A DNA stretch of 64,000 nucleotides from Escherichia coli (GTDB lineage Bacteria > Pseudomonadota > Gammaproteobacteria > Enterobacterales > Enterobacteriaceae). Position 1 is the first letter of the stretch, and each line of letters opens with the position of its first letter. A program made the position numbers and the translations under genes. The notes under the pieces are model-generated. The model saw only the letters and a list, made by a program, of their open reading frames with translations, was not told the origin of the DNA and made no database searches. The DNA is taken from NCBI RefSeq assembly GCF_001677475.2, contig NZ_CP015229.1. One strand, written 5' to 3'. Positions 55,163-57,685 of the stretch are shown piece by piece.

Positions 55163-57685
55163 GTGACTATGTTACAGATAGTCGGCGCGCTGATCCTGCT
55201 GATAGCAGGATTTGCCATTCTTCGCCTTTTGTTCAGAGCATTAATCAGCACGGCTTCTGTGCTGGCAGGGCTTATATTGCTGTGTCTGTTCGGCCCGGCC
55301 TTACTGGCTGGCTATATCACCGAACGCATAACACGGTTGTTCCATATTCGCTGGCTGGCAGGCGTATTTCTGACGATTGCCGGAATGATCATCAGCTTCA
55401 TGTGGGGACTTGATGGTAAACATATCGCGCTGGAGGCTCACACCTTTGACTCTGTGAAATTTATTCTGACCACCGCTCTCGCCGGTGGTCTGCTGGCTGT
55501 TCCCCTGCAGATCAAAAACATTCAGCAGAACGGGATCACACCAGAAGATATCAGCAAGGAAATTAACGGGTATTACTGCTGTTTTTATACTGCCTTTTTC
55601 CTTATGGCATGTTCTGCATGCGCACCATTGATCGCGTTACAGTACGATATTTCACCGTCACTGATGTGGTGGGGCGGGTTGTTGTACTGGCTGGCTGCAT
55701 TAGTGACGCTGCTATGGGCGGCCAGCCAAATCCAGGCGCTGAAAAAACTGACCTGTGCCATCAGCCAGACACTGGAAGAACAACCGGTGCTCAACAGTAA
55801 ATCGTGGCTGACCAGTTTGCAAAACGATTACAGCCTTCCTGACTCACTGACGGAGCGCATCTGGCTGACGCTCATTTCTCAACGGATTTCCCGGGGAGAG
55901 CTGAGGGAATTTGAACTGGCAGACGGAAACTGGTTACTGAACAATGCCTGGTATGAAAGAAACATGGCAGGTTTTAACGAACAGTTGAAAGAGAACCTGT
56001 CATTCACACCTGATGAACTGAAAACGCTCTTCCGGAACCGCCTGAATTTATCACCGGAAGCGAATGACGATTTTCTCGATCGTTGCCTGGACGGCGGTGA
56101 CTGGTATCCCTTTTCAGAAGGTCGCCGTTTTGTATCATTCCATCACGTGGATGAGCTTCGTATCTGTGCCTCCTGCGGGCTGACAGAAGTACATCATGCC
56201 CCGGAAAATCATAAGCCGGATCCGGAATGGTACTGCTCCTCTCTTTGTCGCGAAACAGAAACACTGTGTCAGGAAATTTATGAACGCCCTTACAACTGTT
56301 TTATTTCCGATGCAACGGCGAATGGTCTGATTCTCATGAAACTGCCGGAAACCTGGAGTACAAATGAGAAAATGTTTGCTTCCGGAGGGCAGGGACATGG
56401 GTTTGCCGCTGAACGGGGAAACCATATTGTCGACAGAGTCCGTCTGAAAAACGCACGGATCCTCGGTGATAATAATGCCAGAAATGGAGCAGACAGACTG
56501 GTCAGCGGAACAGAAATCCAGACGAAATATTGTTCAACTGCAGCCCGTAGCGTCGGTGCGGCATTCGACGGACAAAACGGACAGTATCGTTACATGGGAA
56601 ATAATGGCCCCATGCAACTGGAAGTCCCCCGTGATCAGTATGCCGGCGCTGTTGAAACCATGAGGAATAAGATCCGCGAAGGTAAAGTACCCGGTGTAAC
56701 CGATCCCGCAGAAGCGTCCCGGCTGATTCGTCGGGGACATCTGACTTATACTCAGGCCCGTAATATCACCCGGTTCGGGACCATCGAATCGGTCACTTAT
56801 GATATTGCCGAGGGTTCGGTTGTCAGTCTGGCGGCCGGAGGGATCAGTTTTGCACTGACGGCATCGGTCTTCTGGCTCAGCACCAGCGATCGCGATGCAG
56901 CCCTGCAGACAGCTGCTGTCCAGGCAGGAAAAACCTTCACCCGCACACTGGCTGTCTACATCACAACCCAGCAACTCCACCGGCTCAGTGTTGTTCAGGG
57001 TATGCTGAAGCACATTGATTTTTCGACTGCCAGCCCGACTGTCCGACTGGCTCTTCAGAAGGGGACCGGTGCAGGAAATATCAGTGCCCTGAACAAAGTA
57101 ATGAAGGGTACGCTGGTGACATCTCTGGCACTGGTAGCTGTCACAACCGGCCCTGACATGATCAAAATGTTGCGGGGACGGATCTCCGGTGCGCAGTTCA
57201 TCAGGAATCTTGCCGTGGCATCTTCCGGTGTGGCAGGTGGTGCTGTCGGGTCAGTGGCGGGCGGAATACTGTTCAGTCCACTGGGACCATTTGGTGCACT
57301 GACAGGGCGTGTGGTTGGCGGTGTTCTGGGGGGAATGATTGCCTCCGCTGTATCAGGAAAAATTGCCGGAGCGCTGGTTGAAGAAGATCGCGTCAAAATT
57401 CTGGCAATGATTCAGGAGCAGGTGACATGGCTTGCCGGCAGTTTCCTGCTGACCGGACATGAGATTGAAAATCTGAACGAGAATCTGGCCCGTGTTATCG
57501 ATCAGAATGCTCTGGAGATCATTTTCGCCGCCGGTATACAACAACGGGCCGCGACCAATATGTTAATCAAACCACTGGTGGTCAGTATCATCAGGCAACG
57601 CCCCGTCATGGAATATGATGCATCCCATCTCGGCAATATGGTTAACCGACTGGAAGAAGCATTACCCCCGGAGTTACCGGCATAA
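55163..57685 (+). CDS. Large inner-membrane protein at the yeeR position (YeeR-like)
   Basis: 840 aa; about 200-aa N-terminal multi-TM region, a cysteine-containing soluble middle domain, and a glycine-rich hydrophobic C-terminal segment (GVAGGAVGSVAGGILFSPLGPFGALTGRVVGGVLGGMIASAVSG). Assignment to YeeR rests on position only. Confidence 0.5.
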   Translation: MTMLQIVGALILLIAGFAILRLLFRALISTASVLAGLILLCLFGPALLAGYITERITRLFHIRWLAGVFLTIAGMIISFMWGLDGKHIALEAHTFDSVKFILTTALAGGLLAVPLQIKNIQQNGITPEDISKEINGYYCCFYTAFFLMACSACAPLIALQYDISPSLMWWGGLLYWLAALVTLLWAASQIQALKKLTCAISQTLEEQPVLNSKSWLTSLQNDYSLPDSLTERIWLTLISQRISRGELREFELADGNWLLNNAWYERNMAGFNEQLKENLSFTPDELKTLFRNRLNLSPEANDDFLDRCLDGGDWYPFSEGRRFVSFHHVDELRICASCGLTEVHHAPENHKPDPEWYCSSLCRETETLCQEIYERPYNCFISDATANGLILMKLPETWSTNEKMFASGGQGHGFAAERGNHIVDRVRLKNARILGDNNARNGADRLVSGTEIQTKYCSTAARSVGAAFDGQNGQYRYMGNNGPMQLEVPRDQYAGAVETMRNKIREGKVPGVTDPAEASRLIRRGHLTYTQARNITRFGTIESVTYDIAEGSVVSLAAGGISFALTASVFWLSTSDRDAALQTAAVQAGKTFTRTLAVYITTQQLHRLSVVQGMLKHIDFSTASPTVRLALQKGTGAGNISALNKVMKGTLVTSLALVAVTTGPDMIKMLRGRISGAQFIRNLAVASSGVAGGAVGSVAGGILFSPLGPFGALTGRVVGGVLGGMIASAVSGKIAGALVEEDRVKILAMIQEQVTWLAGSFLLTGHEIENLNENLARVIDQNALEIIFAAGIQQRAATNMLIKPLVVSIIRQRPVMEYDASHLGNMVNRLEEALPPELPA

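Follow-up and report, generated by a model that had tools for sequence, protein, structure and literature searches.

In Escherichia coli K-12, yeeR (b2001) lies in the CP4-44 prophage remnant and encodes a protein of 510 amino acids (aa), and in uropathogenic E. coli, yeeR is co-transcribed with agn43 and irmA from the shared, phase-variable agn43 promoter, which is repressed by OxyR (PMC4807369). The same 2016 paper reported that a large deletion in MG1655 disrupts yeeR and stated that the function of YeeR "remains to be elucidated." We found no later work on its function, and no functional study of YeeR in connection with defense or phage, in the searchable literature. PDC-M09 also bears on YeeR. 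The PDC systems are "phage defence candidates" that were predicted by guilt-by-embedding, as genes within BREX, DISARM, or type I restriction-modification loci (bioRxiv 10.1101/2024.01.29.577857); a literature search for PDC-M09 by name returned nothing. Here, we analyze a full-length yeeR from a 64,000-nucleotide stretch of E. coli DNA ("the window," from contig NZ_CP015229.1 of assembly GCF_001677475.2). We predict that YeeR is a membrane protein with a nuclease-fold domain, that its C-terminal half belongs to a family found in many phyla, and, more tentatively, that it acts in conflicts with mobile elements.

The gene lies in an uninterrupted open reading frame (ORF) at 55163..57685 on the + strand, which has 840 codons when it is opened mechanically at a GTG. 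The true start is most likely the ATG at 55169, because GGAG lies 5 nucleotides (nt) ahead of it and because RefSeq uses the same ATG. With that start, the coding sequence is 55169..57685 (+), or 838 codons and a stop. A preliminary description of the window, made from the sequence alone, had placed this gene at the yeeR position, and it is indeed yeeR: it follows agn43 and is 99.3-99.5% identical, over 2523 nt, to RefSeq loci that are annotated as "YeeR family protein" or "hypothetical protein." It is also 99.5% identical to the allele of E. coli PF9285 over its full length. The yeeR allele in the window is thus intact, and the gene belongs to the cargo or the backbone of a CP4-44-type integrative island.

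The K-12 gene is the same gene, also just after agn43, but it is the remnant of a deletion of about 3.36 kb. It aligns to nt 1-1527 only of the window gene (99.4% identity), and the K-12 protein consists of residues 1-507 followed by three foreign residues (EER); it agrees with the window's YeeR at 503 of the first 505 residues. PF9285 carries an undeleted island at the same chromosomal site (sbmC-dacD), followed by yeeW, tmaR, yeeA, sbmC, and dacD. K-12 and PF9285 differ by one base up to offset 1521; K-12 then skips 3357 bp to a point inside the start of yeeS, with a filler of 2 nt. The deletion joins codon 508 of yeeR to the start of yeeS, so that yeeR abuts yeeS in K-12. From the junction alignment and the computed breakpoints, the missing segment corresponds to 56690..60061 (+) of the window, which holds the 3' 40% of yeeR, irmA, the DUF905 and DUF932 genes, an antirestriction gene, and the first codons of yeeS. 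K-12 YeeR therefore lacks residues 508-838. The preliminary description had suspected this truncation, which was already in print: the full-length gene, the K-12 truncation, and co-transcription with agn43 were published in 2016-2019 (Moriel 2016, Bernabeu 2019; PMC4807369, PMC6480617). With an annotated gene, a Pfam family for its C-terminal module, and earlier reports of the truncation and the operon, the preliminary finding as stated adds nothing to the literature.

We assigned the domains of the full-length protein from hydropathy, conservation, and an AlphaFold2 model that was built from a 106-sequence alignment (mean predicted local distance difference test, or pLDDT, of 87.7). In the model, a helical membrane domain (aa 1-204) is followed by two alpha/beta units (205-330), a knuckle of four cysteines (C333, C336, C356, and C360), a long helix (375-403), an alpha/beta domain (405-538), and then only helices (539-831). 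We are highly confident of this architecture. It extends the three-part sketch of the preliminary description (a membrane N terminus, a cysteine-containing soluble part, and a glycine-zipper C terminus), with which the hydropathy, the cysteines, and the glycine and alanine content all agree. Scans of YeeR against Pfam, NCBIfam, and PHROGs gave nothing significant, and searches of PDB sequences with the protein and with a family profile identified no homolog of the soluble domains. Neither the fold assignment nor the context analysis below was found in the searchable literature, and both are predictions.

The N-terminal domain (aa 1-204; 55169..55780, +) is polytopic, with about 5-6 helices. 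By both hydropathy and the model, hydrophobic helices fill aa 1-190, and the pLDDT of these helices is 86-97. Across 48 orthologs, lysine and arginine are plentiful in loops 49-60, 117-136, and 189-204 and scarce in 83-97 and 160-164. This positive-inside pattern puts the soluble domains on the cytoplasmic side, which fits with a Cys4 ribbon and a nuclease fold. The first of these, a putative tandem winged-helix domain (aa ~205-330; 55781..56158, +), corresponds to the two alpha/beta units of the model and resembles the C-terminal tandem winged helices of SelB. However, these are only 10-11% identical in sequence to YeeR, and YeeR has no translation-factor context; the likeness suggests only a scaffold that might bind nucleic acid or protein. 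Next is a zinc-ribbon-like motif, C333-x2-C336...C356-x3-C360 (56165..56248, +), which was identified from the cysteine positions and has the family consensus CxxCG...CSxxC. In 63 of 131 representatives of the family with a complete core, a Cys4 motif lies no more than 120 aa ahead of that core, and in YeeR it is predicted to bind metal.

The predicted core of aa 405-538 (56381..56782, +) fits the alpha-beta-beta-beta-alpha-beta fold of the PD-(D/E)xK, or restriction-endonuclease-like, superfamily. Its key residues are E415, D442, Q451, K453, and E485. In alignments of 68 and 106 sequences, E415, D442, and Q451-x-K453 are either invariant or conserved to at least 90%, and in the model they sit where the superfamily has them in its secondary structure: in helix 1, at the start of strand 2, and in strand 3, respectively. 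YeeR resembles AF1548, Hjc, NucS, and the cleavage domain of FokI in this predicted core fold and in how E, D, and QxK are ordered and placed. We therefore predict that this domain has an Mrr-type nuclease fold with a D-QxK motif; cleavage is a prediction only.

Beyond the nuclease-fold domain, hydropathy and the model indicate a hydrophobic helical region (aa 539-737; 56783..57379, +) that includes a glycine-zipper helical hairpin (aa 680-732; 57206..57364, +). The two helices of the hairpin (aa 680-701 and 707-732, with a 5-residue turn between them) are essentially uncharged across the family and are preceded by a segment rich in lysine and arginine (667-679). G691, G694, G713, and G717 are at least 90% conserved. 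The hairpin is rich in glycine and alanine; it has a weak glycine-zipper match (Pfam Gly-zipper_Omp, E = 0.65), and a profile search matched it to a tape-measure protein's glycine zipper (E = 1.5e-4). Oligomeric action is usual for glycine zippers. We set aside the tape-measure matches from PHROG and PDB, which cover only the low-complexity glycine zipper. We read aa 680-732 as a hairpin that would insert into the membrane, a topology for the C-terminal half that we infer from sequence. The protein ends with an amphipathic helical tail (aa 738-838; 57380..57682, +), as judged from conservation and the model, in which D740, E765, and R811 are conserved. What K-12 lacks is thus the end of the nuclease-fold domain, all of the glycine-zipper helices, and the tail.

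Relatives of YeeR are widespread. When we scanned 1.84 billion cluster representatives with phmmer, 1200 matched at E<1e-3 and 595 at E<1e-30. The conserved module is aa ~400-815, which occurs alone, with a YeeR-type N terminus (51 of the 131 complete-core representatives), or with other extensions. Sel1 repeats are the domain most often fused to it (6 of 52 family members), and an N-terminal hydrophobic segment is absent from the stand-alone members. The YeeR architecture recurs in proteins of 813-856 aa from Enterobacter, Pseudomonas, Herbaspirillum, Bordetella, Janthinobacterium, Vibrio, Cupriavidus, Stenotrophomonas, and a metagenome-assembled genome (MAG) of Methylococcaceae. More broadly, relatives occur in Proteobacteria, Firmicutes (including many gut Clostridia and Negativicutes), Lentisphaerae, Riflebacteria, Cyanobacteria, Acidobacteria, and Chlamydiae. 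Precomputed annotations assign Pfam family PF27347 (YeeR_C) to E. coli proteins that are 97-99% identical to the window's YeeR, as well as to distant homologs. By these labels, the window's YeeR probably belongs to PF27347, which corresponds to its aa ~400-815. All sources name the members of YeeR_C "hypothetical protein."

YeeR_C also seems to be related to PDC-M09B. The PADLOC model of PDC-M09B matches only aa 412-554 of the window's YeeR (E = 9e-6, 22 bits, versus 700 bits for true members) and matches an Enterobacter ortholog with E = 2e-6. BLASTP of YeeR_C against PDC-M09B found nothing, and comparing the two family alignments with hhalign gave a probability of 92% and E = 8e-7 over 58 columns that include D...QxK...VP(K/R)D. 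By eye, PDC-M09B has the motifs KHGEIAE, D-Y...VQSK, and IPKD, which match the HGxxAE, D...QxK, and (I/V)P(K/R)D that it shares with YeeR, and then hydrophobic helices rich in glycine and alanine. These profile matches indicate that YeeR_C and PDC-M09B are distant relatives that share a catalytic-type core and a Gly/Ala-rich hydrophobic C terminus. PDC-M09B has no counterpart of YeeR's N-terminal membrane domain, winged helices, or zinc ribbon. We do not consider the window's YeeR to be a member of PDC-M09: there is no full-length match to PDC-M09B and no adjacent PDC-M09A, and the neighbors are Ag43 and IrmA instead.

A genuine PDC-M09 pair does lie directly upstream of the yeeR ortholog in two Enterobacter species and in Serratia, the only loci with PDC-M09A. 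There, genes for a WYL regulator, PDC-M09A (E = 1e-119), PDC-M09B (E = 1e-214), and YeeR are all on one strand, and YeeR may be a fourth component of this candidate system. The cluster is tight (5556-11323 of locus L016, and also L019 and L021), and genes for an SNF2 helicase and a PLD nuclease are just downstream on the other strand. The Serratia copy of the YeeR gene (L019) is either split or truncated (72 aa and 485 aa).

Considering the architecture, the family, and the genomic context discussed below, we propose that YeeR would be an inner-membrane protein whose N-terminal helical domain holds the remaining parts at the cytoplasmic face: the SelB-like tandem winged helix, the Cys4 zinc ribbon, the Mrr-type nuclease-fold domain, and the glycine-zipper hairpin with its helical tail. 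The winged helices, together with the zinc ribbon, would serve to bind nucleic acid, which the D-QxK domain would cut or sense at the membrane. The glycine-zipper helices would dip back into the membrane, either just as an anchor or as a membrane-disrupting output. YeeR_C (aa ~400-815) would be a mobile module, which is used alone or fused to other anchors or to Sel1/TPR repeats in many phyla, and the whole would be a conflict module of mobile elements, for defense against phages or plasmids or for exclusion. The nuclease or DNA-binding activity and the role in defense are putative. We hold this functional proposal tentatively and would put its chance of being correct slightly short of even.

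Part of the case for this proposal comes from gene neighbors. We scanned one genome per species, found a relative of YeeR in 437 genomes, and kept 80 loci, at which we called ORFs and clustered the 1163 neighboring ORFs. The most common neighbor is a regulator with HTH, WYL, and WCX domains (19 of 80 loci). In 14 loci, WYL genes (15 in all) lie within three genes of the homolog; 14 of the 15 share its strand, and most are directly upstream. A WYL gene is also beside the homolog on the Lactococcus plasmid pNCDO184A, and a helix-turn-helix regulator takes that place on Selenomonas pSRC1. WYL regulators are reported to co-localize with defense systems (PMC9122601), and three reports between them describe this co-localization and the sensing of single-stranded DNA (ssDNA) (PMC9122601, PMC9122588, PMC11662680). 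This published behavior would fit with, rather than prove, a role in conflict. A Sel1/TPR protein is encoded within three genes in 8 of the 80 loci, mostly at position +1. Several homologs also adjoin genes that resemble defense systems. Among loci with the full architecture, some have type III-like restriction genes; L010 has a cluster of SNF2, DUF4391, methyltransferase, and ResIII endonuclease genes along with DUF932, and L011 has a ResIII gene, RadC, and an integrase. Other full-architecture homologs are beside a Gabija-like pair (L036; AAA_15/OLD-TOPRIM and UvrD), SNF2 and PLD genes (L016), or genes for DUF6361, PLD, and a helicase (L022).

Several observations weigh against a role in conflict, or against parts of the model behind it. 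The clustering of neighbors did not identify a universal partner gene, and three quarters of the 80 loci lack a WYL regulator. The figures for defense neighbors are raw counts with no formal background statistic, and some homologs lie among genes for TonB receptors, chemotaxis, or chitinase. PDC-M09 is itself only a predicted candidate (bioRxiv 10.1101/2024.01.29.577857). A stretch rich in lysine and arginine (573-640), between helices 549-572 and 641-666, conflicts with a simple transmembrane reading of helix 549-572. Finally, yeeR is often broken in E. coli, by insertion sequences (IS), 5' and 3' deletions, or chimeric ORFs, and is therefore dispensable.

A bolder version of the proposal is that YeeR_C proteins are an unrecognized class of membrane-embedded, nuclease-type effectors of immunity or exclusion, in which a winged-helix/zinc-ribbon reader and an Mrr-like site are held where foreign DNA enters; many would be repressed by ssDNA-sensing WYL proteins, and the E. 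coli copy would be wired to the Dam/OxyR phase switch of agn43. We consider this version doubtful. If it is correct, then aggregation and resistance to incoming DNA would be switched on and off as one in E. coli. About a third to a half of E. coli genomes carry yeeR, and if the defense or exclusion reading holds, then K-12 lacks a defense or exclusion gene that many wild E. coli carry. Whatever the function, the domain assignment provides named residues to mutate in a "hypothetical" family of more than 1000 clusters at 50% identity, from many phyla.

We considered four alternatives to a conflict module. First, YeeR might serve the island itself, by aiding in DNA processing, transfer, establishment, or anti-defense, instead of defending the host. 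A nuclease-like protein that is held at the membrane could act on DNA on its way into or out of the cell. Also, yeeR is at the edge of a DUF905-DUF932-antirestriction-RadC-DUF987-CbeA/CbtA backbone, of which DUF932, the antirestriction gene, and RadC are "leading-region" genes. Among the homologs, L010 adjoins DUF932, L011 adjoins RadC and an integrase, and some are near YeeP-like GTPases. However, such backbone genes are near few of the 80 loci (DUF932 in 2, RadC in 2, and a GTPase in 4), and stand-alone YeeR_C genes occur under WYL regulators on plasmids and chromosomes of Firmicutes without such a backbone. We did not see relaxase or type IV secretion genes beside the stand-alone YeeR_C genes. 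We think that service to the island is unlikely.

Second, the nuclease fold could be a non-catalytic sensor: its binding of nucleic acid or a nucleotide signal would make the glycine-zipper helices form a pore, and the cell would be killed or arrested, as in abortive infection. The glycine zipper is conserved across the family, and glycine zippers occur in membrane-active proteins. The motif has Q in place of the usual acidic residue. Tight regulation of the WYL type is also, according to PMC9122588, typical of toxic effectors. The placement of E, D, and QxK, as in active members of the superfamily's fold, is what the proposal of a nucleic acid-cutting domain would expect, and we consider a purely sensing role quite improbable.

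Third, YeeR might be an accessory factor for its operon neighbors, which helps to secrete, display, or regulate Ag43 (or IrmA) and hence affects aggregation or biofilm formation. The preliminary description had suggested a functional tie to Ag43 from their "conserved linkage." In every E. coli locus that we inspected, yeeR is directly downstream of agn43; the two are reported to be co-transcribed under the control of OxyR (PMC4807369); and in a terminator scan, no terminator-like site appeared on either flank of yeeR, including in the gap between agn43 and yeeR. But the linkage is confined to E. coli-type DNA. No Ag43 homolog is near the YeeR relative in 79 of the 80 loci, or in any of the 17 full-architecture loci from other genera. 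The one locus with an Ag43 homolog, L015 (JAHAYL010000019.1, labeled "MAG: Oxalobacter sp."), is a 4-kb contig that is 99% identical to the flu-yeeR-irmA segment in E. coli, and it is probably an E. coli contig that was mis-binned into a MAG. Ag43 has been characterized as a working autoaggregation factor in K-12, a strain with only a truncated yeeR. IrmA is released without YeeR or Ag43 (PMC4807369), and in strain 042, a separate promoter serves irmA (PMC9431211). Winged helices, a zinc ribbon, and a nuclease fold in the cytoplasm have no known role in type V secretion. Given the release of IrmA, the promoter in 042, the working Ag43 of K-12, and the absence of linkage outside of E. coli, a helper role for YeeR is very unlikely. 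The presence of yeeR on the agn43 transcript looks like an accident of island layout and not a sign of shared function, and these results warn against reading function into the linkage with Ag43.

The last alternative, that the ORF is an artifact or a decaying pseudogene, can be addressed from the distribution of yeeR. Using Megablast, we found yeeR in 2582 of 5426 complete E. coli genomes, and in 1800 of them, at least 80% of its length is present at 96.6-99.5% identity. The window's allele and that of EC958 are 95.7% identical at the amino acid level, with no stop codon in either copy and a ratio of nonsynonymous to synonymous substitution rates (dN/dS) of 0.23; the nuclease-like domain has zero nonsynonymous changes. 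By this ratio, yeeR is under purifying selection. Although many copies of yeeR in E. coli are broken, we exclude both a functionless pseudogene and the fusion of two genes by a sequencing error, which the preliminary description had named as what would refute it, given the same unbroken frame in 1800 complete genomes, the 813-856-aa orthologs with the same architecture in Pseudomonas, Bordetella, Vibrio, Cupriavidus, and others, the dN/dS of 0.23, and a full-length AlphaFold2 model that is confident across the supposed junction.

Besides the K-12 deletion, independent breaks in yeeR include a 5'-truncated pseudogene and an insertion of IS3 (match H3). In some E. coli genomes, chimeric ORFs (proteins P0158, P0163, P0162, and P0164) have the C-terminal ~340 residues of YeeR fused in frame to the N terminus of a YeeP-like GTPase or to the ESPR signal peptide of Ag43, which indicates that further independent deletions have occurred across yeeP-flu-yeeR. 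The C-terminal half of YeeR is also found, at 99% identity, on a 229-kb plasmid of Klebsiella pneumoniae (NZ_CP094480.1, 142017-143399) and, in part and also at 99% identity, on a 75-kb plasmid of E. coli (CP088843.1; matches H33 and H38 for both plasmids). A segment of the island has thus moved onto plasmids and across genera.

Three more observations concern the loci of other bacteria. In Lactococcus pNCDO184A, the gene just 3' of the YeeR_C homolog (7923-8780 of locus L003) matches the N terminus of BnzA of the Bunzi system (PADLOC, E = 1e-13, positions 3-117 of the 544 in the profile). We considered whether two genes for proteins of ~285 aa downstream of the Lactococcus and Selenomonas homologs might be a shared partner, but they are not similar to each other. 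In a tRNA scan of 17 loci, only L025 and L026 had nearby tRNAs. In L026, from Janthinobacterium, the YeeR homolog (8813-11290) lies between two tRNA-Lys(UUU) genes (6823-6898 and 11555-11630) that are ~4.7 kb apart, with a chitinase gene alongside, an arrangement that a small insertion into a tRNA-Lys array could explain.

Within the window, yeeR is preceded by flu/agn43 (52127..55048, +), which encodes the Ag43 autotransporter and has ESPR, AIDA, autochaperone (AC_1), and beta-barrel (Autotransporter) domains by Pfam, and it is followed by irmA (57761..58216, +; Pfam IrmA, E = 1.6e-37). The order on the 3' side of yeeR is irmA, DUF905, DUF932, an antirestriction gene, RadC/JAB (yeeS), DUF987 (yeeT), and cbeA, which is the CP4-44-type layout. 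Further upstream, a 388-aa ORF (49707-50873, +) with no Pfam match at E<0.001 precedes a gene for a YeeP-like GTPase (50918-51829). When we compared positions 40000-64000 to the 5426 complete E. coli genomes, none matched at least 80% of this 24-kb stretch at one place; the best matches, which include enterotoxigenic E. coli H10407, covered 75-80% of it at 94-96% identity in 5-10 pieces. This version of the island is a mosaic that is not represented as such among those genomes. Finally, the gap between flu and yeeR contains a perfect 7-bp, G+C-rich inverted repeat (55069-55093; GGTCCCG-gtcatcatgat-CGGGACC). No run of T follows it, and the scan did not call it a terminator, but the repeat could fold into a hairpin in the agn43-yeeR RNA and influence its stability or read-through.

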